Below, one piece after another: positions 5,915 to 61,132 of a stretch of DNA of 64,000 bases. Under the pieces are notes generated by a model. That model was not told the origin of the DNA. It was given only the letters and a program-made list of their open reading frames with translations, and did no database searches. A program made the position numbers and the translations under genes. The stretch lies in the NCBI GenBank assembly GCA_045588915.1, contig JAZNFA010000009.1, forward strand, positions 16,016-80,015. The letters are read 5' to 3'. The number at the start of each line of letters is the position of its first letter. Position 1 is the first letter of the stretch. This DNA comes from Clostridia bacterium. Lineage in GTDB: Bacteria > Bacillota > Clostridia > Christensenellales > UBA1242.

Positions 5915-6772
5915 ATGAGTATAATTGACAAAGCTAAAGATTTACTTAAAAAGACTGCAAAAGAAATTAGTAATGCCGAAGATTTGCGTCGTAATCAAAA
6001 CATTGAAGACGTTGTTGCTGCATTAGAAGATGCAAAAAAACATGGTAAAAATGTTTATTATTCATATGAAAGGAAATATCTTTATTCAAATTGGAATAGG
6101 CGTGATGATGACGCTGAGACACTTACTTCTGATTTTAAGAATTTTTATTCGGTTGATGTAACATTAGATAGTGCTTATCAAACAATTTATGGTTGTACAA
6201 AACAGGAATTCGATAAGCAGGTGGCTGAGTTAGCAACTAATGTATCAAGTGCATTACATGAAGATTGGCGTAAAACTCGTTTGAATGAAGATGGTACTTT
6301 TGAACCACGTTGGAAAGCGATTAAAGATCAAGAGTTTATTACTTCCTTAAATTCAAATCAATTGCCAAGCAATATTCGTGTGGCAGACGGTAAGTATGAA
6401 ATCGATATTGCAAATTCAACTTATAATCAATTAAGTCCAGATTGGCAATATGAAAACAAAGAAGCGGGTAAGGTTGCTTCGGAATTGGTAATTCGTGGTC
6501 AAAGGCAATACGTATCAATTCATAACCAAGTGTGTTGGAATAGCTCTTATGGTGAGTATTTGGATAGAGAACAAGTTGGTAATAAAATTCACAATGAATG
6601 GTTGAAAAGAAATACTTGGGCGAAAGGTGGCGAATTGGATGTACCTTTCAAGGATTTACCACCGCATGAACAAGCTAAGGACATTGATCAATACAAAATA
6701 GCATATGCGATATTTGAAAAAATGCAACAAAAAGAACAAGCAATGCAAAATGATATGGGAATGGAAAGATAA
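5915..6772 (+). CDS. hypothetical protein with two RyR-like repeats (HEDWRK..., IHNEWLKRN...PFKDLPPHEQAKD)
   Basis: It is a 285-aa ORF with an AAGGA SD. The second repeat resembles the RyR-domain consensus (iHe.W...GW...P...L.e.eK..D). The N-terminal module is paralogous to the next ORF. Confidence 0.6.
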   Translation: MSIIDKAKDLLKKTAKEISNAEDLRRNQNIEDVVAALEDAKKHGKNVYYSYERKYLYSNWNRRDDDAETLTSDFKNFYSVDVTLDSAYQTIYGCTKQEFDKQVAELATNVSSALHEDWRKTRLNEDGTFEPRWKAIKDQEFITSLNSNQLPSNIRVADGKYEIDIANSTYNQLSPDWQYENKEAGKVASELVIRGQRQYVSIHNQVCWNSSYGEYLDREQVGNKIHNEWLKRNTWAKGGELDVPFKDLPPHEQAKDIDQYKIAYAIFEKMQQKEQAMQNDMGMER

Positions 6773-6789
6773 AGATAATAAAGTTAAAA

Positions 6790-6817
6790 GATCGTCTGTG
6801 AAGGCGGTCTTTTTTTT
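6790..6817 (+). terminator. rho-independent terminator
   Basis: GATCGTC-loop-GGCGGTC (with G-U pairs) plus T8. It is homologous to the 5784 hairpin but in inverted orientation. Confidence 0.6.
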
Positions 6818-6884
6818 ATTTTGTTAGATTGATATTTTGTATTTGATGGTGTATACTTATACCAGAGAAAGGGTAAAGAGAATT

Positions 6885-7238
6885 ATGGTTGATTGTGATA
6901 AGGTTAAGATGAATAAGAAAAATGCAAAGTATGTTGAATTAGGTAGTCTTATTTCAAATGATGATATAAATAATTTGTTTAATTTGGTCTCATCTTCCAA
7001 TGGACCTAATTCTTCAAGTGTTCTTTTTGCTGCTTTAGATAAGGCAAGAGATAGAGGTGAAAATATTTACACAACATTCTTGGGGGTAAAACTTTATTCA
7101 GCTGATGTAACAATTGAAAGTGTTCGCCAGGCTCAATATGGTCATTCTCAAATAAGCAGAAAAAAACGATTTTCTGAAAAAACTCAAAAAGAATGTTTAA
7201 AACAAGTATTACAGAATAGTGCAGAGATTAAAATGTAA
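6885..7238 (+). CDS. hypothetical small protein, paralogue of the N-terminal module of the 5915 ORF
   Basis: VLFAALDKARDRGENIYTTF..LYSADVTIESVRQAQYGHS aligns with DVVAALEDAKKHGKNVYYSY..YSVDVTLDSAYQTIYGCT. The start is uncertain (ATG 6885 or 6909). A TTGATA-17-TATACT promoter at about 6829-6857 makes the TTG at 6837 spurious. Confidence 0.5.
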   Translation: MVDCDKVKMNKKNAKYVELGSLISNDDINNLFNLVSSSNGPNSSSVLFAALDKARDRGENIYTTFLGVKLYSADVTIESVRQAQYGHSQISRKKRFSEKTQKECLKQVLQNSAEIKM

Positions 7239-7266
7239 TTTTCCTTTAAAAATTATAGTAAAGAAT

Positions 7267-7512
7267 TTAATGTGAATTTCGGCGATGTGCTGTAATAATA
7301 GTAAAACTATACGCATGGATTGTGATAACGCAATTAGGTGTTGTTACGTAATAATTTTTACCATTTTTCGTAATGTCGGCTTGGTTTGATAAAATTTCTT
7401 GGCGGCACCAGTTAAGAATATTATCTGATTTCAATCCTAAATTTCTTTGAATACGGGTGATTCCTAGTTCTGTTGTGTGTATTTGGTTGAGATATTTTAG
7501 TAAATCATTCAT
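7267..7512 (-). CDS. DUF3781-family protein
   Basis: IHTTELGITRIQRNL...GKNYY...ITIHAYSFTIITAHR matches the DUF3781 signature as I remember it. Confidence 0.6.
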   Translation of the reverse strand: MNDLLKYLNQIHTTELGITRIQRNLGLKSDNILNWCRQEILSNQADITKNGKNYYVTTPNCVITIHAYSFTIITAHRRNSH

Positions 7513-7522
7513 ACGATTAATC

Positions 7523-8395
7523 CTATTTAACTTCTAACACGGAATCCATAATTTGTGTGAGTCGGTCGCTGATTTGAATAAATTGTGGGGAAGTGCCTTT
7601 TTGATGCAAGCCGATGATAGTAAGTGATCCACCTGCTTGTAAGTGGTTGCTGGTACATAAAATATTTTCAAAATCCATTAAGGCTGCACTGGAATATAAA
7701 TTGGGATCAATTAAACCAGCTTTTTGCATACAACCATTGAATGCTGTGAACATTTTGTCGACGGTATCAATAATGAGTACGACTTTCTTGCCGAGGTCGG
7801 CTTGTTGCTTTGCGTAAAAGAATGTTGATAAACAAGTCATCAATTTTTCTCGGCTACAATAACTTGGTTTAGTGAAGTATGTTGTTGGAACGGTAAAATT
7901 AGTTGGACGGCCGTCAAATGATAACAAAATCGGCATAACATCGTTTGGAAGGTCTGTTATGATTTGGGCAACTTTGGCAGCAATGTCTTGGTTGTCATTG
8001 ACGGGTAATAAAACGGATGTACCTAAAGAAATGGAATGATTGAATGAATTAAAACTGTAGACCGGTTTACTGACAGGTGCTTCGTCATAATTGACGTGGT
8101 CGACCTTAATGATTTCAGTAACGATATAATTGTTATATTCTGAATTGTAATTTACCTTAGCGTGGATGCGATCACCCATTTTTAATTTATAAAAAGCAAT
8201 AAATTCAACGGTAATTAAATATGGTTTATGTTCATCAGTGATGAAAATACCGTTACCTTGGTTAAGTGTATGTACGTAACCAGTTAATGTTTTACTTGTA
8301 TCGGACAGTGGTGCACTACGCACTTGACTGTAAGAAATCTCAAGTCTTTGGGTAAGGTCATCAAAGATGGAAGACATATGGAAATGAATAGTCAT
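7523..8395 (-). CDS. Rho-like protein with a degenerate ATPase core (no Walker A)
   Basis: By eye it is collinear with Rho. The OB/CSD-like part is GYVHTLNQGNGIFIT..KLKMGDRIHAKV..IIKVDHVNYD. The core is VVLIIDTVDKMFTAFN (compare VIILLDSITRLARAYN) and GGSLTII. The GxxxxGKT position reads GTSVLLPVNDNQD. Confidence 0.6.
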   Translation of the reverse strand: MTIHFHMSSIFDDLTQRLEISYSQVRSAPLSDTSKTLTGYVHTLNQGNGIFITDEHKPYLITVEFIAFYKLKMGDRIHAKVNYNSEYNNYIVTEIIKVDHVNYDEAPVSKPVYSFNSFNHSISLGTSVLLPVNDNQDIAAKVAQIITDLPNDVMPILLSFDGRPTNFTVPTTYFTKPSYCSREKLMTCLSTFFYAKQQADLGKKVVLIIDTVDKMFTAFNGCMQKAGLIDPNLYSSAALMDFENILCTSNHLQAGGSLTIIGLHQKGTSPQFIQISDRLTQIMDSVLEVK

Positions 8396-8464
8396 ATATG
8401 CAATATTAAAGTGAAAATATAAGAGTTTGTCAAATTAAATAGTAGTAATACTGTCGAAAAAAAG

Positions 8465-8493
8465 TTGACACAAATGCTTTTCTATTGCATAAT
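8465..8493 (+). promoter_or_regulatory. tuf promoter
   Basis: The layout is TTGACA-17 nt-CATAAT, with an AAGGAG SD downstream. Confidence 0.55.
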
Positions 8494-8530
8494 AATCACA
8501 CTTGCTATAAAAAAGGAGAAAATGTAAAAA

Positions 8531-9736
8531 ATGGCAGAAAAAGAAAAATTTGATAGGAGCAAACCACACGTTAATATTGGTACAATCGGCCACGTTGACC
8601 ATGGTAAAACCACAACAACAGCTGCAATTTGTACTACTTTAGCATTGTCTGGTCAAGCTAAAGCACAAAAATATGAAGAAATTGATGCTGCTCCAGAAGA
8701 AAAAGCACGCGGAATTACGATTAATACCGCACACGTAGAATATCAAACCGAGAAACGTCACTACGCACACGTTGACTGCCCCGGCCACGCTGACTACGTT
8801 AAAAATATGATTACCGGTGCTGCACAAATGGATGGTGCGATCTTGGTTGTTGCTGCAACTGATGGTCCTATGCCACAAACTCGTGAACACATCTTGTTGG
8901 CTCGTCAAGTTGGCGTTCCATACATCGTTGTTTTCATGAACAAATGCGACTTAGCAGATGATGCTGAATTGCAAGACTTAGTTGAAATGGAAATCCGTGA
9001 CTTGTTAACACAAAACGGTTTCCCAGGCGACAGCGTTCCAGTTATTAAAGGTTCAGCTGCTAAAGCTTTGGCTGCTGCTCAAGCTGGTGATGCTTCTTCA
9101 CCTGATTTGAACTGCATTAAAGAATTGATGAATGCAATCGACACTTATATTCCAGATCCAAAACGTGATGTTGATAAACCATTCTTAATGCCAGTTGAAG
9201 ACGTATTCACAATTACTGGTCGTGGTACAGTTGCTACTGGTCGTGTTGAACGTGGTCAAGTTAAAATTGGTGACGTTGTTGAAATCGTTGGTTTAGGTGC
9301 TAACAAATCTACTACCGTTACTGGTGTTGAAATGTTCCGTAAATCATTGGATTCAGCTATGGCTGGTGACAATGCTGGTTTATTGTTACGTGGTGTTGAA
9401 CGTAAAGATATTGAACGTGGTCAAGTATTGGCTGCTCCAAAATCAATCACTCCACACACAGAATTCACAGCAGAAGTTTACGTATTGAAAAAAGAAGAAG
9501 GCGGACGTCATACTCCATTCTTCAATGGTTATCGTGCTCAATTCTACATCCGTAGAACAGACGTTACTGGTGTTATTGAATTACCAAAGGGTGTTGAAAT
9601 GGTTATGCCTGGTGACAACATCTCAATGACCGTTAAATTGATTTCTGAAGTTGCTATCGAAAAAGGTATGCGTTTCGCTATCCGTGAAGGAGGTCACACT
9701 GTTGCTTCAGGTGTTGTTGCTGACATCATCAAATAA
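8531..9736 (+). CDS. tuf: elongation factor Tu
   Basis: It has [17 protein letters not shown] and NKCD and is full length (401 aa). Confidence 0.98.
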
Positions 9737-9761
9737 TTGTTTTTCAATTATTGATTTTGAA

Positions 9762-9792
9762 AGAGTTAGGTTTATGCCTAACTCTTTTTTTT
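9762..9792 (+). terminator. tuf terminator
   Basis: AGAGTTAGG-loop-CCTAACTCT forms a 9-bp stem followed by a T-run. Confidence 0.8.
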
Positions 9793-9912
9793 GTGATAAA
9801 AACTGCAACAGATTAGGGTTATAAAAAGTTATTTTGAATGTTTTTTTGCTGAAATTTAGTAAATATCTAAAAAATTAGTGGCAGGGTGTAGGTTTTGTGA
9901 TATCATATTTTT

Positions 9913-48621: not shown

Positions 48622-51255
48622 TTATTTATCTTTGCAAACGGCATTTTGGATGAGTTTGACAACTTCCACAACTGGAACAACTAAAGCAGAGAAACCGAGA
48701 CAGATTAACCATTGTGTTAAATTTAAGCTTTGTAAGTGGAAAACGCTGGCTAAGACTGGAATGAAAGCGATTGCTAAAATTGATACGATACTAACAAACA
48801 AGGAAATAACTAAGGTTTTGTTTTTGAATGGGTTTGAAGTAAAAATTGAGTGGTTAGTACGTACATTAAAGATATGGAATAACTGGATGAAGTTCAAAGC
48901 TAGGAATCCCATTGTAGAAGCAATAGCATCATTATAAAGTGTGCGGCCAACAACAAAGATTGCGATAACAATCAACGCTTGTAAAACACCTTGGTAACCA
49001 ATGTTAAAGGCAATTTTTTTGCTAATGATATTTTCATTTTGTTTACGTGGTTTGAGTTTCATTACGTCTTTTTCCACGCCTTCCATACCCATAGAAATTG
49101 CTGGCATAGTATCGGTAATCAAATTGATAAATAAGATTTGGACAGCAACCAAGAAAGTAACTTGTGGGAAAATCAGAGTAGTGAGTAAAATTGTTAACAC
49201 TTCGGCAATATTGCCACCTAATAAAAACTGTATGGTTTTTTGAATATTAGTATAAATCTTACGACCTTCTTCAACGGCAATAACAATGGTTGCAAAGTTA
49301 TCATCAGTCAAAATTAAGTCAGCAACTTGTTTGGTAACTTCGGTTCCGGTTTTTCCCATACCAACACCAATATGTGCCGATTTGATACTTGGGGCGTCAT
49401 TGACACCATCGCCGGTCATTGCAACAACTTTGCCCAGTGCTTTAAAAGCTTGAACAATACGAACTTTGTGTTCGGGACTGACACGTGCGTAAACTTTGAA
49501 TTTTACTACTTCGGTTTTTAATTCTTCGTCAGTAAATTGGTCAAGGTGTGCACCTTCAACAACTTCAGAATATTTAGTAACCATACCTAGTTCTTTAGCA
49601 ATGGCATAAGCTGTATCTTTGTGGTCACCGGTAATCATTACAGCTTGCATACCAGCTTGTTTGCATTTCTTTAATGCTTTGTAAACTTCAGCACGTGGTG
49701 GGTCAATCATTCCTGCCATACCAACAAAGGTTAATGCACTTTCCTTGATGTCATCTTGATTTGCGCAAGTACGGTATGCAAAACCGAGAACACGTAAAGC
49801 TTGTGAACAAAGGTTGGCGTTAGCATTTTTTAATGTCTCGATGTCTTCCGGTGTGATTTTACGAACTTCACCATTGATATCAATTTTAGTACAGCGTTTA
49901 ATAATTTCATCAAAAGCACCTTTCGTAAATTGTTGGTAATTTGGGTGATTAAGGTTGATGGTAGACATCAATTTGCGATTAGAATCAAAAGGAATTTCGT
50001 TGACACGTTGCCAAACTTGCTCAAGTGTGTTTTTGTGGTAACCGAACTTTTCGGCACAATCGAGCAAAGCAGTTTCGGTTGGGTCACCAATTAAATTATT
50101 CTCTTGTACTTTTGCGTCATTACATAAAACCATTGTGTTTAAAACGTTTGACATTAAGGCTTTATCGCATTGTTTAATATCATATTCCTGATTGTTGAGA
50201 ACAATTTTGCGCACGGTCATTTTGTTTTGTGTGATTGTTCCAGTTTTATCTGAACAAATGACTTCACAACAGCCTAAGGTTTCTACTGAGTGTAGGCGAC
50301 GAATAATAACGTTTTGTTTAGCAAGTTTGGTTACGCCGATGGAAAGAATAATTGTAACGACAATCATCATACTTTCCGGAATAGCTGCAACTGCAATAGC
50401 AACAGCTGTGATTAAAGATGTTGACCAGTGTTGTTTAGTAATAAAGATGTTGATTAGAAAAATTGCTGCAGCAATGACCAATACAGCCACAGTAATAAAT
50501 TGAGCAAATTTGTTTAAACTGTGTTGTAGTGTGGTTTTTTCTTTGGTTTGTTTTTGGTTTAACATTCCAGCAATTTTACCAATTTCGGTGTTCTGCCCGA
50601 CGGCGACAACTACACCCATACCACGACCATAAGTAACAACACTGGACGAGAATGCCATATTTTTACGGTCGCCGAGTGGTGTCTTTGATTCAAGGATTAA
50701 GTCAGCATTTTTGCTAATTGCCACGCTTTCGCCGGTAAGCATAGATTCATCGCATTTTAAATTGGCACTTTCAATTAAACGAAGATCAGCAGGTATAACA
50801 TCGCCGGCTTCTAATAATACGATGTCACCTTCGACTAAGTCTGAAGTTTGAACATAAACTACTTCGTTATTGCGTAATACCTTAGAGTAGGGCTGTGACA
50901 TATTCTTCAGTGACTGCATCGCATTTTCAGCTTTGGATTCTTGAACTACGCCTAAAACGGCATTTAAGACAACTATGAATAAAATAATAATTGTATCAAT
51001 AAATTCTGTAGCCCCATTGTTTTCGATGATACCAAAGACTAATGAAATCACCGCTGAAATTAAAAGTAGGATAATCATTACATCCTTAAACTGAACAAAG
51101 AGACGTGATAACCAGGATTGCTTTTTAATTTCGGCCAATTGGTTTTTGCCATTTTTTAATAATCTTTCTTGTGCATCTTTATCTGTGAGCCCTTGTTGTG
51201 AAGATTTTAATTCGGTTAAAACTTCACTAGCTGACTTTGTGTAAGTAAGTTCCAT
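48622..51255 (-). CDS. P-type Ca2+-transporting ATPase (P2A/YloB-like)
   Basis: It has TGES, CSDKTGTITQN, TGDHKDTA, MTGDGVNDAPS and ten TM segments. The start is MELTYTK at 51255. Confidence 0.9.
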   Translation of the reverse strand: MELTYTKSASEVLTELKSSQQGLTDKDAQERLLKNGKNQLAEIKKQSWLSRLFVQFKDVMIILLLISAVISLVFGIIENNGATEFIDTIIILFIVVLNAVLGVVQESKAENAMQSLKNMSQPYSKVLRNNEVVYVQTSDLVEGDIVLLEAGDVIPADLRLIESANLKCDESMLTGESVAISKNADLILESKTPLGDRKNMAFSSSVVTYGRGMGVVVAVGQNTEIGKIAGMLNQKQTKEKTTLQHSLNKFAQFITVAVLVIAAAIFLINIFITKQHWSTSLITAVAIAVAAIPESMMIVVTIILSIGVTKLAKQNVIIRRLHSVETLGCCEVICSDKTGTITQNKMTVRKIVLNNQEYDIKQCDKALMSNVLNTMVLCNDAKVQENNLIGDPTETALLDCAEKFGYHKNTLEQVWQRVNEIPFDSNRKLMSTINLNHPNYQQFTKGAFDEIIKRCTKIDINGEVRKITPEDIETLKNANANLCSQALRVLGFAYRTCANQDDIKESALTFVGMAGMIDPPRAEVYKALKKCKQAGMQAVMITGDHKDTAYAIAKELGMVTKYSEVVEGAHLDQFTDEELKTEVVKFKVYARVSPEHKVRIVQAFKALGKVVAMTGDGVNDAPSIKSAHIGVGMGKTGTEVTKQVADLILTDDNFATIVIAVEEGRKIYTNIQKTIQFLLGGNIAEVLTILLTTLIFPQVTFLVAVQILFINLITDTMPAISMGMEGVEKDVMKLKPRKQNENIISKKIAFNIGYQGVLQALIVIAIFVVGRTLYNDAIASTMGFLALNFIQLFHIFNVRTNHSIFTSNPFKNKTLVISLFVSIVSILAIAFIPVLASVFHLQSLNLTQWLICLGFSALVVPVVEVVKLIQNAVCKDK

Positions 51256-51262
51256 ATTTTTA

Positions 51263-51325
51263 ATTTTAGTACAGTCTAAAAAGATTATCAAATGATTTGC
51301 GAATATGTGTCAGAAGCATTATGAT
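51263..51325. promoter_or_regulatory. divergent promoter pair, both abutting their ATGs
   Basis: On the minus strand: TTGATA(51291-51286)-17-TAAAAT(51268-51263)-7 nt-ATG 51255. On the plus strand: TTGCGA(51297-51302)-17-TATGAT(51320-51325)-6 nt-ATG 51332. Confidence 0.55.
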
Positions 51326-51331
51326 ATAATA

Positions 51332-52351
51332 ATGATGGGGGAAGACGTCGAAAACTTGCAAGACGAAGAAGTTACCTTGAATGAAGGTAATTATGCTGAT
51401 GAAGCACAAAGTGATGAATTAGATGATTTGCAGGAGCGTGAAAATGCCTTAGCTGGTGCTCAGGCTGAATACGATGCTGTGCAAGATGGTGGTCTTGGTT
51501 ATTATGATGAAGATAGTTATAATTATAATTACAACGATTCAAGCCCTTTGACCGATGTTGATTATCGACCAGGTAACGATGAAAGTTCGGCATTTACGAA
51601 TAATTACACTGGCACAGATGATTATGACCCAATTCAACGTGATAACCAAGACGATGCTGACGATGTTATGGGTTATAACGATGATGAAGATTTCGATGGT
51701 GATGGTGACGACTTCGATGGCGATGATGATGACGAAGAAGACGACGATGAAGAAGATGAAGAAGATGAAGAAGATGACGATGAAGACGCCGAAGAAGATG
51801 ATGAAGAAGGCGAAGATGATGAAGGTAATGAAGACGGAAATGGTAAAAAAGGAAAGGGTAAAAAACAAAAAAAAGGTGCAACTAAAGAAAAAGAAATCGT
51901 AGTTAATGGTGTTAAGCTTTGGAAAAAAGGTGATCCCATTACAATTGAAGTTTTGTCGACACACTGGGATTTGTTTCGCGAACTACCAGAAATGCGTGAA
52001 ATGATGGACCAAGCTGATATGGCTGTTGAACAAGGTTTAAATACAACTGGACCGAATCTTATGATTAAAACTTTTAAATCAATTCAAAAAATTTCTGATC
52101 CAGATTCGGGAATAATTAGTGCTTTATTGAAAATGATTTCAAAACCCAGTTTAATGTTGACATATGGTGCTGCCGCTATTACGGAAGCAATCTTTGATCA
52201 ACAATGGTTGCAAGTAACTTTGATTTTTGGATTGAAAGCGGCGCTTAGTGTTGTTTTAAAAATGGATATAGTGAAATTTATTTTGGAAATGATTTTTGAA
52301 AAAGGTGTTGAGTTGTATAAAGCAAAACTCAAAAAAATTAAAAAGAAATAA
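51332..52351 (+). CDS. hypothetical protein with an extreme poly-D/E tract and a hydrophobic C-terminal region
   Basis: It contains DDFDGDDDDEEDDDEEDEEDEEDDDEDAEEDDEEGEDDEGNED followed by a K-rich patch. The start is at MMGEDV. Confidence 0.55.
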   Translation: MMGEDVENLQDEEVTLNEGNYADEAQSDELDDLQERENALAGAQAEYDAVQDGGLGYYDEDSYNYNYNDSSPLTDVDYRPGNDESSAFTNNYTGTDDYDPIQRDNQDDADDVMGYNDDEDFDGDGDDFDGDDDDEEDDDEEDEEDEEDDDEDAEEDDEEGEDDEGNEDGNGKKGKGKKQKKGATKEKEIVVNGVKLWKKGDPITIEVLSTHWDLFRELPEMREMMDQADMAVEQGLNTTGPNLMIKTFKSIQKISDPDSGIISALLKMISKPSLMLTYGAAAITEAIFDQQWLQVTLIFGLKAALSVVLKMDIVKFILEMIFEKGVELYKAKLKKIKKK

Positions 52352-52408: not shown

Positions 52409-52972
52409 ATGGAAGCAAAAAGTTTAAGACCTGGAAAATTATTTAAAATGGACGGCGTAGTTTACGAAGTTATTGACTATGAATTCCGTCAACAACCACG
52501 TTTGGCTGCTGCGATTAGTGCGAAAATTCGTAACATTAAAACCGGAGCAATCAGCGTAGAAAACTTCAAAGGAAATCCTGTTTTGGAAGACGTTGAAGTT
52601 GAAAAGAAAGAATTGCAATTTTCTTACAGTGATGGTGAAATCGTTCACTTTATGGATATGGAAACTTACGAAGATATTCCAGTTAATCGTGATTTGTGTG
52701 AAGCATCATTAAAATACAATGACGAAAATGGTGAGCCAATTGTTTGTACGTTTAACTATATTGATGGGAAAATTGCAAGCATTGTTCCTCCAACATTTGT
52801 TGTTTTGGAAGTTACCGAAACTGAACCAAGTGTTGCAGGCGATACAGCTCGTAACGCTTTGAAAAATGCAAAATTGTCAAGTGGTTTGGAAACTAAGGTA
52901 CCAATGTTTGTGAATAATGGCGATAAGATTCGTGTTGATACCAGAACTGGTGCTTACGTTGATCGTGCATAA
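52409..52972 (+). CDS. efp: elongation factor P family protein (Arg at the loop tip)
   Basis: It is 187 aa and collinear with EF-P (GDKIRVDTRTGAYVDRA at the C-terminus). The loop reads EFRQQPRLAAA instead of VKPGKGxA. Confidence 0.85.
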   Translation: MEAKSLRPGKLFKMDGVVYEVIDYEFRQQPRLAAAISAKIRNIKTGAISVENFKGNPVLEDVEVEKKELQFSYSDGEIVHFMDMETYEDIPVNRDLCEASLKYNDENGEPIVCTFNYIDGKIASIVPPTFVVLEVTETEPSVAGDTARNALKNAKLSSGLETKVPMFVNNGDKIRVDTRTGAYVDRA

Positions 52973-53094: not shown

Positions 53095-53406
53095 GCATAC
53101 CCTAACTCCCCAATAAAAATTACACATGCTATTGTGTTTTTGCAATTGGTCATTCCACAAAATAGAGCCCTGATTGTCGTCAGAGCTCTTTTTGTTTATT
53201 ACAGACAGTCGAATCAAAAATACGGTAGCATCACAAATACTTATTAGCGAAAATTAAAATAGTGGCAGTTAAGCGTATTTTTTAGAAAATCTAATATAAA
53301 ATTGTTTTGTAGAAATATGTAAAAAGTTTTTGCGGAAAACTTGTAAAAACTCTTGCATTTTCGGAAGTTTTTCTGTAAAATATATAAAGAAGGGGAATTG
53401 GGGAAA

Positions 53407-54606
53407 ATGATCATAAGACCAAATTATTTGGAAAAATTAAAACCATTTATAGACGTTAAGTTGGTGAAAATTCTTTCTGGAATTAGGAGATGTGGAAAAT
53501 CAACTATTCTTGAAATGTTAAAACAAGAGTTGATTAGCCGTGGTGTAAAAGAGAATAACATCATTACTCGAAAATATTCAGAAGAAGAATATGATGATTC
53601 TTTTACCTCAAAGGATATGTTCAATGATTTAAAATCTCAAATAGTTAATGATGATAAATATTATTTTTTATTAGACGAACTTCAAGAAATAACTGGTTGG
53701 GAAAAAGTTATTAATACTTTAATGGAAGATTATAATACTGATATTTATGTAACTGGTTCTAATTCAAAATTAATGAGCAGTGAAATATCTACATACTTAA
53801 CTGGTCGTTATATTACGATTCCAGTTTATACGCTTTCTTTTGAAGAATATTTGTCATTTAAAAACGGGACTGGAAAAAATAATAAAGAGTTATTCCAAGA
53901 ATATCTTCGCATTGGTGGATTCCCGTTAGTTGCAATCACTAATTTAAATGATACAAATGCTTACGATGTTGTCAAAGGAATCTATGATTCCGCGGTTCTT
54001 AATGATATTACTCGAAAACATAAAATTACTAATAGAGATTTGTTTAATCGTGTTGTTAAGTTTGTTATTGAAAATGTTGGTAAAACATTTTCTGCTAACT
54101 CAATCGTTAATTTCTTAAAATCAGAAAAAAGAACTATTTCAACTGAACTAATTTATAATTATTTAGAATATTTAGAAAAAGCGTTTATCATTTATCGTTG
54201 CCAACGATATGATTTGCAAGGCAAAAGTGTATTAAAGACACAAGAAAAATTTTATCTTGCTGATCAATCAATTAAATATGCACTTTATGGTTTTAATCCA
54301 ACGAGTATTGCAGCCATGCTTGAAAATGTTGTTTATTTTGAACTTAAGCGACGTGGTTATGATGTTTATATTGGTAAAAATTTAGACAAAGAGATTGATT
54401 TCGTAGCGACTCTCAGAGATGAAAAACTCTATGTACAAGTGTGTCGTGAATTGCCTAAGGAATCAGATAGAGAGCTGGCTAACCTTATGGAAATAAATGA
54501 TAATTATCCCAAAATGGTTGTTACTCTTGATGATTACGCTAATGGCAATTATAATGGGATTAAGATTGTAAATATAGTTGATTTTTTATTAAATAAAAAT
54601 ATATAA
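53407..54606 (+). CDS. AAA-type ATPase with a DUF4143-like C-terminal domain
   Basis: It has the Walker A GIRRCGKST, the Walker B YFLLDELQEI, and the C-terminal EIDFVAT...YVQVC. The start is ATG 53407 after a GGGGA SD, and a TTGCAT-17-TAAAAT promoter lies at about 53353-53381. Confidence 0.75.
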   Translation: MIIRPNYLEKLKPFIDVKLVKILSGIRRCGKSTILEMLKQELISRGVKENNIITRKYSEEEYDDSFTSKDMFNDLKSQIVNDDKYYFLLDELQEITGWEKVINTLMEDYNTDIYVTGSNSKLMSSEISTYLTGRYITIPVYTLSFEEYLSFKNGTGKNNKELFQEYLRIGGFPLVAITNLNDTNAYDVVKGIYDSAVLNDITRKHKITNRDLFNRVVKFVIENVGKTFSANSIVNFLKSEKRTISTELIYNYLEYLEKAFIIYRCQRYDLQGKSVLKTQEKFYLADQSIKYALYGFNPTSIAAMLENVVYFELKRRGYDVYIGKNLDKEIDFVATLRDEKLYVQVCRELPKESDRELANLMEINDNYPKMVVTLDDYANGNYNGIKIVNIVDFLLNKNI

Positions 54607-54636
54607 AGTTTACATGTATCTTGTTTTCAATCAAGT

Positions 54637-56115
54637 TTATATATAGTATTTTGCTTCTATAGTTGGTTGTTTGCTGGTAAAAGGATTTTTAAAGGTTGCA
54701 TCATAAAATGAATTCTGATCATCGTCAGGACCTCTTTTTAATGGACTAGTAAATAAAATTTCCATTTTATCGTTGTATAGTTTAATTTTTTTAACAAGTA
54801 CTGCGGCGATTTCTCTAGCGTGTCTTTCTAAAACATCACTGTAATATTTTCGTAATGATTCTCGGTCAAGTGGCATATTAATTTTCTCTCTTTCAATTGC
54901 TATATTCTTTTCAAGTGTTTTTACTTGTTCTTCAAGTTTGTTTATTCGTTCAATTAGTATTTGGGAAGCTGGACCTTGCGTGAGAAAGTTAATTAGATTA
55001 TTAATTGCTGTTTTAGCTTCTTGCTGTTCTTGTTCAAGAATATGTAAATGTTCAGTAAGTTTCTTTCTATCTGTTTTAAGATATAAGAGTTTATCAAGTA
55101 ACTTGTTCATAACTTTTGGTTTATTTAATTCACCAATAACTTTATGAATAACAAAACGTTCAAATAAATCCTTGGGTAGTGCAGTCTTAGGGCAACCACT
55201 AGGATTCTTGCGTTTTCCTTCGCAGCGGTAGTAATATCTTCTCACACCGTCTTTGTTCGTTCCAGAAGAGCCGTTGATACTTTCTCCGCAATATCCACAA
55301 ACAAGTTTCCTGCTGAAGATATAATTTGTGATTTTACTGATACCACCGAGTAGTGAGTGTGATTTTGCTCTTACTCGTTCATATACATCTTTATCAATAA
55401 TTTGTGGATACATGTTTTTATATTCTTCATCCCCATAGTGATAAACACCAGTGTAGTGTTCACTTTCAAGTATTCGAGAAACCACATAGTAGTTAAATGG
55501 TCTGCCACGATTTTTGATACCTTTAGCTTCTAACATGAGAAGAATGTCGTTGATATAATAACCAGAATCAAATTTTTCAAACATGTATTTAACTACAGCG
55601 GCTTCGTGTTCGTTGATAACTAACTTCTTGTTTTCTAGTTTGTAACCATAAGCTACAGCTCCGCCTTGGAAAGTTCCTTTAATGCGTGATTCTCGCATAC
55701 CACGTTTAATCTTCTGAGATAGTTCAGCAGAGAAGTATTGGTTCAAACTTTCAAGCAAGCCTTCAAGAATAATTCCTTCTGGTGTGTCTGGAATGTTCTC
55801 CATAGCTGACACTAGTTTAACGCCATTATCTCTTAATGTTTTTCGATGGAGAACAGTTTCGTATTTGTTTCGAGAAAAGCGGTCAAGTTTGTATACGATA
55901 ACATAATCCCATTCTTTTTTATAACTATCTTTAATCATGCGTTGAAATGCTGGTCGGCGATCATTAGTTCCAGTCATAGCACGATCAATGTATGAATCGA
56001 CAATTGAAATCTTGTTTCGTTCAGCATATTCCTTGCAAACACGAACTTGTCCGTCGATACTTTGTTCAGATTGATTGTCGCTAGAGTATCTAGCGTAGAT
56101 TAATGCTTTTTTCAT
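54637..56115 (-). CDS. large serine recombinase
   Basis: It has the resolvase catalytic N-terminus ALIYARYSSDNQ, a recombinase domain, the zinc ribbon CGYCGE...YYRCEG, and a coiled coil. An AGGAGG SD precedes it. Confidence 0.9.
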   Translation of the reverse strand: MKKALIYARYSSDNQSEQSIDGQVRVCKEYAERNKISIVDSYIDRAMTGTNDRRPAFQRMIKDSYKKEWDYVIVYKLDRFSRNKYETVLHRKTLRDNGVKLVSAMENIPDTPEGIILEGLLESLNQYFSAELSQKIKRGMRESRIKGTFQGGAVAYGYKLENKKLVINEHEAAVVKYMFEKFDSGYYINDILLMLEAKGIKNRGRPFNYYVVSRILESEHYTGVYHYGDEEYKNMYPQIIDKDVYERVRAKSHSLLGGISKITNYIFSRKLVCGYCGESINGSSGTNKDGVRRYYYRCEGKRKNPSGCPKTALPKDLFERFVIHKVIGELNKPKVMNKLLDKLLYLKTDRKKLTEHLHILEQEQQEAKTAINNLINFLTQGPASQILIERINKLEEQVKTLEKNIAIEREKINMPLDRESLRKYYSDVLERHAREIAAVLVKKIKLYNDKMEILFTSPLKRGPDDDQNSFYDATFKNPFTSKQPTIEAKYYI

Positions 56116-56553: not shown

Positions 56554-56638
56554 ATCAAAAATATTCACTTTAAAGTGCGTCAAGAAGCTCGAACAATAAA
56601 ATAAAGACAAATATTATATCCCGTGTTATAATTTTGTA

Positions 56639-58249
56639 ATGGCGAAGAAAACGAAAGAAACCGTAAATAATCTTGATTCAATTTTGTTTAAATGTAGAGA
56701 TATTTTGAGGGCGGCAAGAAACTCCGGCTCTTTCTTTGAAAAAAGAGATATGATGTTGACCCTTATTTTTTTAAGGCTTATTGGGGAGAAGTATGAAGAC
56801 GGAATTGATAAATTAAAAGAGACTTTGATTGCACAAGGATTAGATCCAGAAGATGAAAATATACGAGCAGCGTTCTTCGATGATGCGACATTTACTGACG
56901 GAACGTATAATTTACCTAAAGAAGCACAGTGGTCGGAAATTATTAATAAGCCAGCGCCACAATTAAATGTTGCCCTTGATACCGCACTTAAACGAATTTC
57001 AGAAACCACAAAACAATTAAAAGGTTGCTTCGTTGAAGGAACTTTTACCACAAGAAATTTGGGTGCCAATGATATTAAGAAACTGGTTGATGAGGTTAAT
57101 AAAATTAGTCATAAAGCATTCGGCGAAGAAAAAGATTTGATTGGTCACGTGTATGAATATTTCTTGAAAGAATTTGCGATTAACGCGACAAAAGAAGAAG
57201 GCGAATTCTATACGCCACATGATGTTGTTCAATTAATTGCGGCTATGGTTGAACCATTTAACGGAACATTATATGACCCGGCTTGTGGTTCGGGCGGAAT
57301 GTTTATTCAAAGTGCAGACTTGGTAAAGTCTAAACAAGGTAACTTAAACGGTATCAATGTTTATGGACAAGAAAAAGATGCCGCAACATATCGTTTGGCC
57401 AAAATGAATTTGGCACTGCGTGGTATCAGCCATAATCTCGGCGACACGAACGATTCAACTTTTACCAATGATTTACATAAAGGATTGTATTTTGATTACA
57501 TTATGGCTAATCCGCCATTCAACCTTAAAACTTGGTATGATGCGAATTTGGAAAATGATGCACGTTGGGCTGATTATGTAACACCGCCAGAAAGCAACGC
57601 TAACTATGCTTGGATTTTACATATGTTATCCCACTTGAAACCAAGTAATGGCGTGGCTGGTTTCTTATTGGCAAATGGTGCTTTGAATGATAGTGATACT
57701 TTGGAAATTCGTAAAAGATTAATTCAAAATGATAAAGTTGAAGCCATCATCGTTTTGCCACGCCAACTATTCTTTACAACTGATATCAGTGTTACCTTGT
57801 GGATTCTTAACCAAAACAAAAAAGGTGGTAAATATCACGATAGAAAACAAAGAAATCGTGAGCACGAAATTTTGTTTATGGATTTAAGAACCTGGACGGA
57901 AAATGCGGTTAAAGACGAACAAAAGAAAAAAGTTGCTTTATCGTCGGAACAAATTGAAAAAGCCGCCCAGATTTATCACGATTGGCAATGTGAAGGTGTG
58001 GATGGAAAATATTATGAAGTCCCTGAATTATACCGCAGTGTTTTAATTGATGAAATTGAAAAGCAAGGTTGGGCTTTGACACCGAGTAAGTATATTGAAT
58101 TTATCGACCATGATTTGCAAATTGATTATGAAAAAGAAATGAAGCGTATCCAACAGGAAATGTCCAATATTATTGATGCTGAAAAAAAATCCCAGAAAAT
58201 GTTAGCAGAAGCTTTTGAAGGAATTGGCTATGGCATTGAAAACAATTAA
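56639..58249 (+). CDS. hsdM: type I restriction-modification methyltransferase subunit
   Basis: It has the HsdM N-terminal domain, DPACGSGGMF (motif I) and ANPPFN (motif IV). Confidence 0.93.
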   Translation: MAKKTKETVNNLDSILFKCRDILRAARNSGSFFEKRDMMLTLIFLRLIGEKYEDGIDKLKETLIAQGLDPEDENIRAAFFDDATFTDGTYNLPKEAQWSEIINKPAPQLNVALDTALKRISETTKQLKGCFVEGTFTTRNLGANDIKKLVDEVNKISHKAFGEEKDLIGHVYEYFLKEFAINATKEEGEFYTPHDVVQLIAAMVEPFNGTLYDPACGSGGMFIQSADLVKSKQGNLNGINVYGQEKDAATYRLAKMNLALRGISHNLGDTNDSTFTNDLHKGLYFDYIMANPPFNLKTWYDANLENDARWADYVTPPESNANYAWILHMLSHLKPSNGVAGFLLANGALNDSDTLEIRKRLIQNDKVEAIIVLPRQLFFTTDISVTLWILNQNKKGGKYHDRKQRNREHEILFMDLRTWTENAVKDEQKKKVALSSEQIEKAAQIYHDWQCEGVDGKYYEVPELYRSVLIDEIEKQGWALTPSKYIEFIDHDLQIDYEKEMKRIQQEMSNIIDAEKKSQKMLAEAFEGIGYGIENN

Positions 58250-59339
58250 GTTGGGTGAATTAATTGAAATATCAGAAGAAGTAAATTCTGATTTAAAATA
58301 CTCATTGGATGATGTAAAGGGTATTTCAATCAATAAAATATTTATAGAAACCAAAGCAGATATGCAGGGTGTTTCTTTAAAGCCTTACTTACTTGTGAAA
58401 CCAGATTATTTTTCTTATGTTCCAACGACTTCAAGGAACGGTGAAAAAATTACTTTAGCACATAATAATACAAGGGATACTTATATTGTATCATCTTCAT
58501 ATGTCGTTTTTTATAATAAGAGACCAGATTTGTTGAATTCTGATTATTTGTTTATGTATTTTAATCGACCAGAATTTGATAGATACTCAAGGTTTAATTC
58601 TTGGGGTTCAGCAAGAGAGACTTTTTCATGGGAAGAAATGTGTGATATCGAAATTGAACTGCCAGATTTACCTACGCAAAAGAAATATGTTGATGTTTAT
58701 TTGTCAATGATTGAAAATCAAAAAGCATACGAACGTGGTCTTGATGATTTGAAATTAACTTGCGATGCCTATATTGAAGATTTGCGCCGTAGAATGCCAT
58801 GCGAAGAAATTGGACCATATCTTATTAAGTCTGAAAAAAATTCAGATGGTAATATTAAGAGAGTTTTGGGTATAGGGCAGACAGGGTTTATTTCACCACA
58901 AAAGGATCCGAATGAATCACTTAAAAATTATAAAATTCTAACTGATGGTTGTATTTGTTACGCACCACCGTTGTATAATATTTTGACTGGTGCAATACAT
59001 TGTTATACACAAATAGAAAAAGCAGTTTGTTCACCTATATACGAAGTTTTCACTTGCAATAAAGAAAAAATTTTACCAGAGTATTTAACATTGTGGTTAA
59101 AACGAAGTGAGTTTATTAGATACGCTGCGTTTTATGCATTAGGTGTGAGACAAACATTTGATTATAATTTAATGGAAGAATTTAAAATTCCGATTCCTTC
59201 ATTTGAAATTCAAAAAGCAATTGTGGATATTTATAAAACCTATGTTGAACGAAAAGAAATTAACGAACGATTGAAAAAGCAAATCAAAGACATTTGCCCA
59301 ATTTTAATTAAAGGTTCAATCGAAGAGGGTAAGAAATGA
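58230..59339 (+). CDS. hsdS: type I R-M specificity subunit
   Basis: It has two target-recognition halves separated by conserved helical spacers (YLSMIENQKAYERGLDDLK, IVDIYKTYVERKEINERLKK). The start overlaps the hsdM end. Confidence 0.85.
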   Translation: MALKTIKLGELIEISEEVNSDLKYSLDDVKGISINKIFIETKADMQGVSLKPYLLVKPDYFSYVPTTSRNGEKITLAHNNTRDTYIVSSSYVVFYNKRPDLLNSDYLFMYFNRPEFDRYSRFNSWGSARETFSWEEMCDIEIELPDLPTQKKYVDVYLSMIENQKAYERGLDDLKLTCDAYIEDLRRRMPCEEIGPYLIKSEKNSDGNIKRVLGIGQTGFISPQKDPNESLKNYKILTDGCICYAPPLYNILTGAIHCYTQIEKAVCSPIYEVFTCNKEKILPEYLTLWLKRSEFIRYAAFYALGVRQTFDYNLMEEFKIPIPSFEIQKAIVDIYKTYVERKEINERLKKQIKDICPILIKGSIEEGKK

Positions 59340-61132
59340 ACACGCAAGAGTTAAACGAATACATTAAAAATTATTTAGAGAATGATAAAACCCAGCGTGC
59401 AATTATGTTAACTGCACCTTGGGGTAGCGGTAAAAGTTATTATATAAAAAATAACCTTTGTAATTTTTTGCATGAAAAAAAATTAGATTATGCAATAGTT
59501 TCGTTGTATGGAATTAAAGAGTTAAAAGATGTGAGCAAGAATCTATATTTAGAAATCAGAGCTAATGCTCTTACTAAAAAAAATGAAAAAGCTGCCTTAG
59601 TTAAAATAGTTGGGAAAACACTGCTTAAGGGAGTTGCCGGCTTGTTTCATGTCGATTTAAATCAATCAGAAGAAGATCTACAAAAACTATACGAATCTAT
59701 AGAGTTGACAAATAGACTGATTATATTCGAGGATATTGAAAGAACAAGTATCGATATTGTTGATTTTTTAGGTTATGTAAATAACCTTGTTGAACAAGAT
59801 GGTGTCAAGGTCCTTCTAGTCGCTAATGAGGAAGAAATCAAACAAATAGAAACGGTTGAAAATGGGAAAGTAAAAAAAGATGAAAATATAAAATATATTA
59901 AAATTAAAGAAAAAACAGTTTCTGACACGATAAAATTTACATGTGATAGAAATAATTCCATTGAAAATATAATTAGACAATTTACAAAAAATGAATGGTT
60001 TTCTTCAATGGTTGATAATCCTGAATTTAATCTGGCTGGCAAAATAGGACAAATAATGATAAAAACTGAATCGTATAATTTTAGATCATTATTGTTTGCT
60101 TGCCAAAAGACTGTTGATATTTTTAATATGCTTCCAAGAAGCAAAAATTATAATTTAGATTTTTTAACGAAGTTTTTTCTGGAAACTGTTGAATATTGTT
60201 TAAGAGAAGAGGAATTAAATAGAAATAAATTTAATGAAGAAAAACCAGATTCTAATAATGAAAATAATGATAGCATAAGTAAAATAATTTCTAATTTTAA
60301 AATTGAGAACAGATTGAATAATGTTATGAAAAATTATATTGATAATCAAATTTTTGATATAAATGAGTTTGAACTTATGCAAAGTCAATTTATTTCTTCG
60401 CAAAAAACAGAAGAAGCAAATGCTGTTTTATATAAAATATATTATTATTTGGATTTTACAGAAGAAGAATTAAAATCTGCTATTGATGAATTATATGAAA
60501 AATTAAAAACAAATACAGGCATTAGTTACAATAGTTATATAAAGATTGCTCAATATTTGTTTGAAATAGATAAATATATTAGTTATCAAAGGATCAACGA
60601 TTGTATTAAACAAATGAAGAATAATCTAAAAACTGGGATACAAGTTGGCGATAAAGTGCAGACACATGTTTGGGGCGGATCAGTTATACAGAATGAAAAA
60701 GAGAATGATGAATTTAATAAATTTAGAACGTATATTTCTAGTCTAATTCAAGAAAAGAATGAAATTGATTTTGACTATAATCCTGAAAGCATTGAAAACT
60801 ATGTTTTTAAAGATCTGAAACACCAATTTATGGAAGACCGTGGTTTTATGAAGCAATTTAATATCGAAAAACTTTTGGCGATGTTAGAAAAATGTTCTCC
60901 TAAACAAATCGGTTATTGCAACGAGATTTTAAACCAAGTTTATATGGCTTATTATAACGTTTTTGATTTTATGTCTGATGATTTGAAAAATTTAATTAAG
61001 TTGAAGAATGGTGTTGATTCTATGATTAAAGAAAACACAAATATTGATAAAATCAAAAAAATAAGAATGGGCTTTTTGTCGGATAAGTTAGATGTTATAA
61101 TAAAAAAATTACGAGGAGAAGAAAATGTCTAA
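59336..61132 (+). CDS. KAP-family P-loop NTPase embedded in the type I R-M operon
   Basis: It has the Walker A LTAPWGSGKSYY and a Walker B-like LIIFEDIERT. About 400 aa of K/N/E-rich C-terminal region has no motif I recognise. It has an ATGA overlap with hsdS and an 8-nt overlap with hsdR. Confidence 0.75.
   Translation: MNTQELNEYIKNYLENDKTQRAIMLTAPWGSGKSYYIKNNLCNFLHEKKLDYAIVSLYGIKELKDVSKNLYLEIRANALTKKNEKAALVKIVGKTLLKGVAGLFHVDLNQSEEDLQKLYESIELTNRLIIFEDIERTSIDIVDFLGYVNNLVEQDGVKVLLVANEEEIKQIETVENGKVKKDENIKYIKIKEKTVSDTIKFTCDRNNSIENIIRQFTKNEWFSSMVDNPEFNLAGKIGQIMIKTESYNFRSLLFACQKTVDIFNMLPRSKNYNLDFLTKFFLETVEYCLREEELNRNKFNEEKPDSNNENNDSISKIISNFKIENRLNNVMKNYIDNQIFDINEFELMQSQFISSQKTEEANAVLYKIYYYLDFTEEELKSAIDELYEKLKTNTGISYNSYIKIAQYLFEIDKYISYQRINDCIKQMKNNLKTGIQVGDKVQTHVWGGSVIQNEKENDEFNKFRTYISSLIQEKNEIDFDYNPESIENYVFKDLKHQFMEDRGFMKQFNIEKLLAMLEKCSPKQIGYCNEILNQVYMAYYNVFDFMSDDLKNLIKLKNGVDSMIKENTNIDKIKKIRMGFLSDKLDVIIKKLRGEENV

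Follow-up and report, generated by a model that had tools for sequence, protein, structure and literature searches.

We describe a gene, here called X, that lies between hsdS and hsdR of a type I restriction–modification (R-M) operon in a 64,000-nucleotide (nt) stretch of the Clostridia bacterium contig JAZNFA010000009.1 (positions 16,016 to 80,015; hereafter the window) and that encodes a predicted P-loop nucleoside triphosphatase (NTPase). X belongs, by its profile matches, to the candidate family PDC-S49. We found PDC-S49 to be large and constant in its two-domain architecture, to occur in several unrelated kinds of defence hotspot and to evolve independently of the R-M subunits. We favour, with moderate confidence, the view that X is an autonomous, single-protein anti-phage gene that acts as an NTPase switch and travels as cargo of a mobile type I operon, in its hsdS-hsdR slot. 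A preliminary description of the locus had proposed a different role, that of a PrrC-like guardian coupled to the R-M complex. The gene order on which that proposal drew, hsdM-hsdS-X-hsdR as in the E. coli prr locus, is confirmed by domain matches (Table 1), whereas the coupling itself is disfavoured by the comparative data presented below.

Searched against the PADLOC models, a check that the preliminary description had suggested, X matched all three models of PDC-S49 over nearly its full length: PDLC05031 (E=1.3e-41, amino acids (aa) 4-498), PDLC05029 (E=4e-37) and PDLC05030 (E=2.5e-23, aa 1-592). It also matched phrog_4740 (E=6e-33). These matches identify X as a member of a family that had already been catalogued, a divergent one that is 22-24% identical to the PDC-S49 proteins of E. 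coli and B. cereus. The PDC set comprises 145 untested ‘phage defence candidates’ derived from genes embedded in type I R-M, BREX and DISARM systems (Payne et al. 2024, bioRxiv 10.1101/2024.01.29.577857). As embedding in R-M is its defining criterion, the arrangement noted for X was already the basis on which PDC-S49 was flagged. The idea that X is an uncharacterised second-line defence module is therefore plausible in its second half, given the defence-gene neighbourhoods of its relatives, but not in the sense of a family new to the catalogues. X is a genuine gene and not a chance open reading frame (ORF), since more than 1300 full-length homologues were present among the candidates scored and a profile search with the C-terminal domain alone retrieved 930 representatives of 50%-identity clusters. 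Essentially all of the top 150 matches in the latter search had the same layout of about 600 aa, and the C-terminal domain was met only in this architecture. No NCBIfam family matched X.

The assignment of X to the KAP NTPases is weak. Both KAP-type motifs are present (Walker A, GxxGxGK[ST]; Walker B, hhhh[DE]D[LIV][DE]R), and the Pfam KAP_NTPase model matches X above its threshold (E=5e-8, 33 bits against a gathering score of 20, aa 10-228) as well as 37 of 39 homologues. The same model gives 148 bits on PifA, compared with 33 bits on X, and alignment of the X-family profile with PifA using hhalign covered 28 columns around Walker A at a probability of 17%. The earlier KAP label thus survives on motifs and Pfam threshold, but it is a loose one, with likeness to PifA confined to Walker A.

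PDC-S49 ranges over gut Clostridia, Mollicutes, E. coli P2 prophages and plasmids of Bacillus and Enterococcus. To describe the contexts of its members, we used 80 loci from GTDB species representatives, mostly gut Clostridia, Mollicutes and Anaeroplasmataceae with a few Bacteroidota. The 76 full-length X genes (window included) comprised 34 directly upstream of a window-like HsdR gene, 9 in other type I arrangements (R-M-S-X or M-?-R-X), 28 elsewhere and 5 at contig ends. Because type I detection was seeded with the Hsd proteins of the window, the share of type I contexts is a minimum estimate. The closest relatives, which were found by exact protein, likewise have the order hsdM-hsdS-X-hsdR, and in the recurring arrangement the gap between X and hsdR varies from -29 to +75 nt. 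Placement directly upstream of hsdR, which the preliminary description had regarded as worth surveying, thus recurs in 34 of the 71 interpretable loci, and approximately 40% of homologues (28/71) are found outside type I operons. Neighbours outside type I operons include D12 methyltransferases, DUF4238, GmrSD, DUF1016/YhcG (PDC-S02), AAA_14-DUF4143, integrases and a MobL relaxase; further defence-type neighbours of X relatives are PDC-S01, PDC-S32, PDC-S35 and a Stk2-like kinase. DUF4238 has been validated as a single-gene defence and belongs to the P2 hotspot (PMC9122126). In loci L007-L010, a homologue at 8001-9806 of the locus, 37% identical to X, is preceded by a small HTH_17 gene and followed on its 3' side by a HinfI-type restriction enzyme, an N6_N4 methyltransferase and a D12 methyltransferase, all on a mobilisable element that also carries a relaxase/MobC and a large serine recombinase.

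Stand-alone members were found in a hotspot of E. coli P2-like prophages, in which the order is gpA, a DinI-like gene, PDC-S49 (with or without a RES NAD+ phosphorylase gene) and portal. One such protein, the archetype of the family, is WP_032176113.1 (630 aa; L101:3496-6905, E. coli NRZ14408 chromosome), which matched PDC-S49 with E=4e-156. Its gene is followed in some E. coli genomes by one for a RES-family NAD+ phosphorylase of 384 aa, which is absent in others, and at least 37 complete E. coli genomes hold most of the 4-kb P2-hotspot stretch with PDC-S49. Other stand-alone members are located on a B. cereus plasmid and an E. faecalis plasmid, each beside small serine recombinases, and the family is also represented on one Tenericutes plasmid, on a few viral contigs and by phrog_4740.

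Large and small serine recombinases, relaxases and integrases are such frequent neighbours that X might have no part in defence and might instead serve the mobile element around the R-M operon as an ATPase for maintenance, partition or transposition; a weak fold likeness to TnsC, DnaC and IstB-type ATPases would fit this idea. We consider it very improbable. X lies inside the R-M operon rather than next to the recombinase, the recombinases of related loci differ in type and position, no DNA-binding or transposase partner was found, and a fast-evolving C terminus and a low GC content are typical of immune genes. The occurrence of PDC-S49 in the P2 hotspot between gpA and Q also speaks against it, because this hotspot is a dedicated site for defence cargo (Rousset et al. 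2022, PMC9122126).

The independence of X from its neighbours in the operon is seen in several comparisons. In the 28 operons that had both a full X and a full HsdR, HsdM and HsdR were strongly correlated in pairwise identity (Spearman 0.87), whereas X correlated with neither HsdR (0.11) nor HsdM (0.04), in a test whose dynamic range is limited because most X pairs are 30-45% identical. Median identity was 38% for X, compared with 65% for the Hsd proteins, and X had a lower GC content than hsdR in 27 of 27 related loci. On the X tree the genomic contexts are clustered, yet they switch among close relatives: the X of L090, which is outside an R-M operon, is 79% identical to that of L086, which is inside one.

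Six near-identical contigs (L001-L006) that encode one exact X protein bear on the same question. In four of the six, hsdM or hsdR carries an independent frameshift or nonsense mutation. The mutations are at L001:10215, L004:6371, L005:5329 and L006:5680 (reference L002 coordinates), in contigs that show 2-6 differences in 8 kb; three are single-base deletions in hsdR and hsdM, two of them in A5-A6 runs, and the fourth is a G>T change that creates a nonsense codon in hsdM. Two of the four mutations are outside homopolymers. It could be that these broken genes reflect phase variation or decay of the R-M system. The contigs were retrieved by exact X identity, so the lack of any nucleotide change in X among them is uninformative about constraint, but an intact X does occur together with a broken R-M system.

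These data bear most directly on the guardian model, according to which X is kept inactive by HsdMSR and becomes active once the complex has been disabled by an anti-restriction protein of a phage (Ocr, ArdA or Stp, for example). X does occupy the prrC slot, with start and stop codons that overlap those of its neighbours, and the recurrence of this placement at short distances from hsdR is what such a coupling might look like. Nevertheless, we judge the model to be quite unlikely on present comparisons. The identities of X do not co-vary with those of HsdR or HsdM as the latter do with each other, a large minority of homologues reside outside type I operons, including the stand-alone members in P2 hotspots and on plasmids, and an intact X stands beside a broken hsdM or hsdR in four of the six displayed contigs, which argues against the model because a restrained toxin should not tolerate a broken partner. 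X also has no nuclease or other toxic domain, and no PrrC model is among its PADLOC matches at E<=0.1, although the presence of a PrrC model in the library copy used is unconfirmed (the PADLOC authors report PrrC detection). A literature search on ‘Ronin’/Ocr gave no match. PrrC itself combines an ABC-type ATPase with a C-terminal anticodon nuclease and depends on its R-M partner. It therefore resembles X in its slot and in having an N-terminal NTPase, and differs from X in that the NTPase of X is KAP/AAA+-like, X has no nuclease, and X is often outside R-M and does not co-vary with Hsd.

Alternatively, X could be an accessory factor that remodels, assembles or disassembles HsdR on the methylase core or on DNA, tuning restriction rather than defending in its own right, for example by loading, by restriction alleviation or by recycling stalled translocating complexes. 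Translational coupling of X to hsdR is consistent with such a role, as is the presence of X relatives beside type II R-M genes and solitary DNA methyltransferases. KAP NTPases have been proposed to drive assembly and disassembly of protein complexes (quoted in PMC13001434), and the weak structural neighbours of X include loaders and initiators (ORC/Cdc6, RFC, TnsC and DnaC). However, the structural likeness (TM<=0.28 in Foldseek, where TM is the template modelling score) extends only to the shared ATPase core, and X has a far higher rate of divergence than the proteins it would assist. Most type I systems, by a wide margin, work without such a factor. Together with the same evidence of independence and autonomy that counts against a guardian, these points make an accessory role improbable.

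In at least 13 loci (L014, L025, L028, L030, L032, L036, L049, L059, L060, L074, L075, L085 and L086; ~6300-8000 in locus coordinates), the hsdS-hsdR slot holds extra defence-type genes, and these are always between hsdS and X. The extra cargo is of three kinds: AbiJ_NTD4 with or without Abi_C (PDC-S32), AbiJ_NTD3 fused to a Ser/Thr kinase (Stk2/PD-T4-6-like), and an N-domain fused to a CAP12/Pycsar TIR (PDC-S35). The gap between hsdS and hsdR behaves as an insertion site for multiple cargoes.

The same genes raise the possibility of a two-gene system, in which X senses infection and activates an adjacent toxic effector, with solitary copies using a distant effector or HsdR. AbiJ_NTD4 with or without Abi_C (HEPN) was found immediately beside PDC-S49 in 8-9 loci, the AbiJ_NTD3–kinase fusion in 4 loci and the TIR protein in 3 loci, and the RES NAD+ phosphorylase is its neighbour in E. 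coli P2 prophages. Swapping of effectors around a constant NTPase, here four unrelated types in different lineages, typifies conflict systems. On the other hand, 61 of the 76 X genes have none of the three scored effector types upstream, and some of the E. coli P2 hotspots carry the NTPase without RES. AbiJ, PD-T4-6 and Stk2-type kinases are known to defend as single genes, and PDC-S32 and PDC-S35 are themselves catalogued as single-gene candidates. Unrelated defence genes are expected to adjoin one another in hotspot slots, and the type of partner tracks X clades about as inheritance of the whole operon predicts. We therefore think it rather unlikely that X is the sensor half of such a system.

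X is predicted to consist of an N-terminal alpha/beta NTPase domain and a C-terminal all-alpha domain (Table 1). The NTPase is very probably active, as the Walker A, Walker B, sensor-1-like, KEKTxxDT and lid-like positions are invariant across the 39 members aligned. An amphipathic insert rich in Gly and Lys (consensus GKTIxKGVASFFG[VI]; median hydrophobic moment (muH) 0.40 and mean hydrophobicity (<H>) 0.35) is conserved across the family at a point between the Walker A and Walker B motifs. In X it is the most hydrophobic and the least confidently modelled part of the protein, with a predicted local distance difference test (pLDDT) score of 31-41, and it is situated where classical KAP and YobI NTPases have their transmembrane helices. 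No transmembrane helix was detected in X itself, as the maximum Kyte-Doolittle 19-residue score was 1.42, and it stayed below 1.5 in all 39 members; this excludes X as a transmembrane protein. Two relatives have N-terminal extensions with predicted transmembrane helices: L065 (7086-9854, 922 aa), with about 300 extra aa and about 6 helices, and P0145 (750 aa), with about 150 extra aa and about 4 helices. They appear to be membrane-anchored versions of an otherwise soluble family that arose by two independent fusions. No intact hsdS is located between hsdM and the X-family gene of L065, but a fusion of HsdS to X was ruled out in this case because the extension is a multi-transmembrane domain.

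The C-terminal domain evolves faster than the N-terminal domain (mean pairwise identity 33% versus 55%). AlphaFold2 modelled full-length X with a pLDDT of 80 and the C-terminal domain alone, from a deeper alignment, with a pLDDT of 88.7. A Foldseek search of PDB and BFVD with the full-length model recovered only a generic AAA+/STAND ATPase core (TM<=0.28), with ORC4, Cdc6, FtsH, HslU, RFC, TnsC, NRC2, Apaf-1 and RdrA as weak neighbours. With the C-terminal model alone, there was no significant match in PDB (best E=0.04; TM<=0.17 to 14-3-3, TOG and designed repeats). Sequence searches of PDB with X and with the family profile likewise returned nothing meaningful (only p300 TAZ2, E>0.3), and no C-terminal Pfam family recurs consistently across the 39 members. 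On the predicted model, therefore, the C-terminal fold seems to have no relative in PDB and not to be an enzymatic fold. The earlier statement that this region bears no nuclease, HEPN or transmembrane signature holds in the Pfam, PDB, Foldseek and Kyte-Doolittle analyses. A HEPN or other nuclease reading of X was specifically ruled out, as there is no invariant His, no Rx4-6H motif and no Pfam or fold match.

For X as an autonomous defence gene, we propose that the fast-evolving C-terminal domain binds a phage-made protein and that this binding would make the N-terminal KAP/AAA+-like NTPase oligomerise in an NTP-dependent manner. Phage growth would then be halted by the oligomer rather than by a nuclease. 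The output of the oligomer may be directed at the membrane or at the energy state of the cell, as with PifA and Tmn, either through the conserved amphipathic insert or through futile NTP turnover. The position in the operon would provide co-expression and co-transfer with a first-line defence and need not imply a physical partnership. We favour the membrane- or energy-directed output with low confidence, on account of the position of the insert at the canonical transmembrane site, the variants fused to transmembrane domains and the precedents of PifA and Tmn.

Known systems offer partial parallels to this proposal. Protection of E. faecalis against phages has been shown for four proteins, three of gut-metagenomic origin, in which a KAP NTPase is joined to a region whose function is unknown; in the one that was mutated, EF_KAP, the Walker B motif and the C-terminal region were both needed, and its action is not by abortive infection (Andersen et al., PLoS Biol 2026, PMC13552941). 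With PifA as the classical example, these proteins make it out of date to say that KAP NTPases lack an established role. In general description they are like X: single polypeptides with an N-terminal KAP-type NTPase and a C-terminal region of ~320-400 aa without a known fold, from gut Firmicutes and near serine recombinases. EF_KAP has two transmembrane helices and its Walker B at 246-247, whereas X has no transmembrane helix and its Walker B at 133-136, and none of the four is described as embedded in R-M.

PifA of plasmid F, the founding prokaryotic KAP NTPase, is a KAP protein without transmembrane helices that aborts T7 infection with membrane effects, a single-gene phage exclusion factor borne on a mobile element (PMC13001434, quoting Aravind et al. 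2004). X resembles it in being a soluble KAP-annotated NTPase with a long helical C-terminal part that lacks the transmembrane helices typical of the KAP family. Unlike X, PifA has 741 aa, a strong KAP match and no link to R-M, and its homology to the X family is restricted to the surroundings of Walker A. Tmn, which couples ATP turnover to ion export (PMC13001434), is also a single-gene NTPase with an insert in the P-loop domain after Walker A. Its insert holds two true transmembrane helices and it forms a membrane decamer, whereas the insert of X has 23 residues and is amphipathic and non-transmembrane. Sensing of a phage protein raises ATP turnover by Tmn (PMC13001434); in X, a phage-sensing switch is a proposal only. 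X gave no match to a Tmn model in PADLOC. Similar to X, the Avs/AVAST STAND NTPases pair an NTPase with a rapidly evolving helical sensor domain, which is putative in X, and X shows weak matches to nSTAND_NTPase5 (14.7 bits, below the cutoff of 34), Apaf-1 and NRC2 (TM<=0.26 for the latter two). Avs proteins have an N-terminal effector (nuclease, SIR2, TIR or others) and a C-terminal TPR-like array, whereas X has no effector.

Several observations weigh against our favoured reading, beyond the limited range of the identity comparison. When further genes are embedded in the operon, X remains the gene that adjoins hsdR, with none between the two, and this fixed position could reflect a link with HsdR, as a guardian would also have it. 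The neighbours of related loci were clustered from simple longest-ORF calls. Conservation of the insert at the sequence level (GKT..KG) suits a substrate- or DNA-contacting loop; in topological position the insert also corresponds to the initiator-specific motif of ORC/Cdc6/DnaA, proteins that rank high among the weak Foldseek matches, and a contact role of this kind fits equally well. The output step is a guess, because X has no recognisable effector domain. PDC-S49 is a computational candidate that appears by name in no paper of the literature searched. It is also conceivable, though unlikely, that X is wired to its neighbours, as an effector-less NTPase sensor of infection or anti-restriction that unleashes HsdR or an adjacent AbiJ_NTD-HEPN, kinase, TIR or RES protein, or whose insert causes a membrane lesion. 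In its favour are the fixed place of X as the last gene before hsdR and the four types of effector found beside PDC-S49 genes.

In the window, X has the same orientation as both Hsd neighbours and overlaps each of them, as the preliminary description had stated (Table 1). The X start codon (ATG, 59336-59338) and the hsdS stop codon (TGA, 59337-59339) form an ATGA overlap, and the hsdR ATG at 61125 precedes the X stop codon (TAA, 61130-61132), giving an overlap of 8 nt; both sets of coordinates were verified. A Shine-Dalgarno-like GAGGG is located 6 nt 5' of the X start, inside hsdS, and a similar GAGGAG 9 nt 5' of the hsdR start, inside X. No terminator-like site was found on the + strand from hsdM to the window end. 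The start of hsdS overlaps the 3' end of hsdM, and hsdS has an alternative ATG start at 58230. The hsdR product contains HSDR_N, SWI2_SNF2/ResIII, T1R_D3-like and T1RH-like_C domains (TIGR00348, E=1e-133). GC content is 26.2% in X and 24.6% in its C-terminal domain, compared with 36.1% in hsdM, 33.9% in hsdR and 35.4% in the whole window. The sole strong promoter-like element of the operon stops 7 nt short of the hsdM ATG, so the hsdM mRNA would be leaderless or nearly so, or else the true start is further downstream. An antisense ORF of 123 aa within X (59773-60144, - strand; TTG start), low in complexity and rich in Leu, Ser and Phe, most likely results from the AT-richness of the coding strand and is not a gene.

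Table 1. Positions of X, its predicted parts and the neighbouring genes in the window
Feature	Position	Strand	Description
AAA_14 + DUF4143 ATPase	53353-54606	+	PADLOC candidate PDC-S01, E=1e-149; second defence-candidate gene of the island
Large serine recombinase	54637-56115	-	Resolvase + Recombinase + Zn_ribbon_recom; flanks the operon, divergently oriented
Putative operon promoter	56604-56632	+	Best sigma-70-like match, extended -10, just 5' of hsdM; consensus match only
hsdM	56639-58249	+	Type I R-M methyltransferase subunit, 536 aa; HsdM_N + N6_Mtase E=2e-90; PADLOC MTase_I E=2e-107
hsdS	58215-59339	+	Specificity subunit, 374 aa from TTG start; two Methylase_S stretches; PADLOC Specificity_I E=3e-113
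X	59336-61132	+	598 aa, ATG start; KAP-like P-loop NTPase, PADLOC candidate family PDC-S49
N-terminal alpha/beta NTPase domain of X	59336-59947 (aa 1-204)	+	Predicted from conserved columns and AlphaFold2 strands/helices
Walker A, APWGSGKS	59414-59437 (aa 27-34)	+	W29, G30, G32 and K33 invariant in 39-member alignment
Gly/Lys-rich amphipathic insert, EKAALVKIVGKTLLKGVAGLFHV	59585-59653 (aa 84-106)	+	Between Walker A and Walker B; conserved in family
Walker B, IIFEDIERT	59720-59746 (aa 129-137)	+	D133, E135 and R136 invariant in 39-member alignment
Sensor-1-like, VLLVANE	59810-59830	+	N164 invariant in 39-member alignment
KEKTVSDT motif	59906-59929	+	Conserved as KEKTxxDT in 39-member alignment
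C-terminal all-alpha domain of X	59948-61129 (aa 205-598)	+	Predicted; helical region aa 205-592 in AlphaFold2 model
Lid-like, NFRSLLFACQK	60077-60109	+	Conserved as NxRS..ACQK; R250 invariant in 39-member alignment
hsdR	61125 to window end (64000), open	+	Restriction/translocase subunit, first 958 aa within the window

The serine recombinase beside the operon marks a mobile or island context, and recombinases of a similar kind flank the related loci L001-L006 and L093-L094. The PDC-S01 ATPase, the recombinase, the R-M operon and X together form a small defence island that begins directly after efp (52409-52972), and related loci hold gene kinds similar to those of this island (53353-56115 plus the R-M operon). 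On the other side of efp, an ORF of 348 aa (51305-52351) encodes a protein whose long middle section is of low complexity and extremely acidic (Asp/Glu-rich), and which also has a Lys-rich patch and a hydrophobic C-terminal segment; no Pfam family was found in it. It is flanked by efp and a P-type cation ATPase gene (48622-51291, - strand).

The window itself is one more example of PDC-S49 and adds little; the value of the analysis lies in the comparative results, namely the independence from Hsd, the stand-alone members in P2 prophages, the variants fused to transmembrane domains and the recurrent adjacent effectors. Should X instead prove to be wired to its neighbours, it would represent a new type of guard or adaptor layer on restriction systems. 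If PDC-S49 works as a defence in its own right, it would add to the recent experimental evidence of anti-phage activity in KAP-type NTPases whose C-terminal regions are unknown. Given its unprecedented C-terminal fold and lack of a recognisable effector, it would then have to act against phages by some means outside the usual nuclease and NADase toolkits. The chief interest is the mechanism of an effector-less NTPase with a novel fold, for which the E. coli homologue is directly testable.

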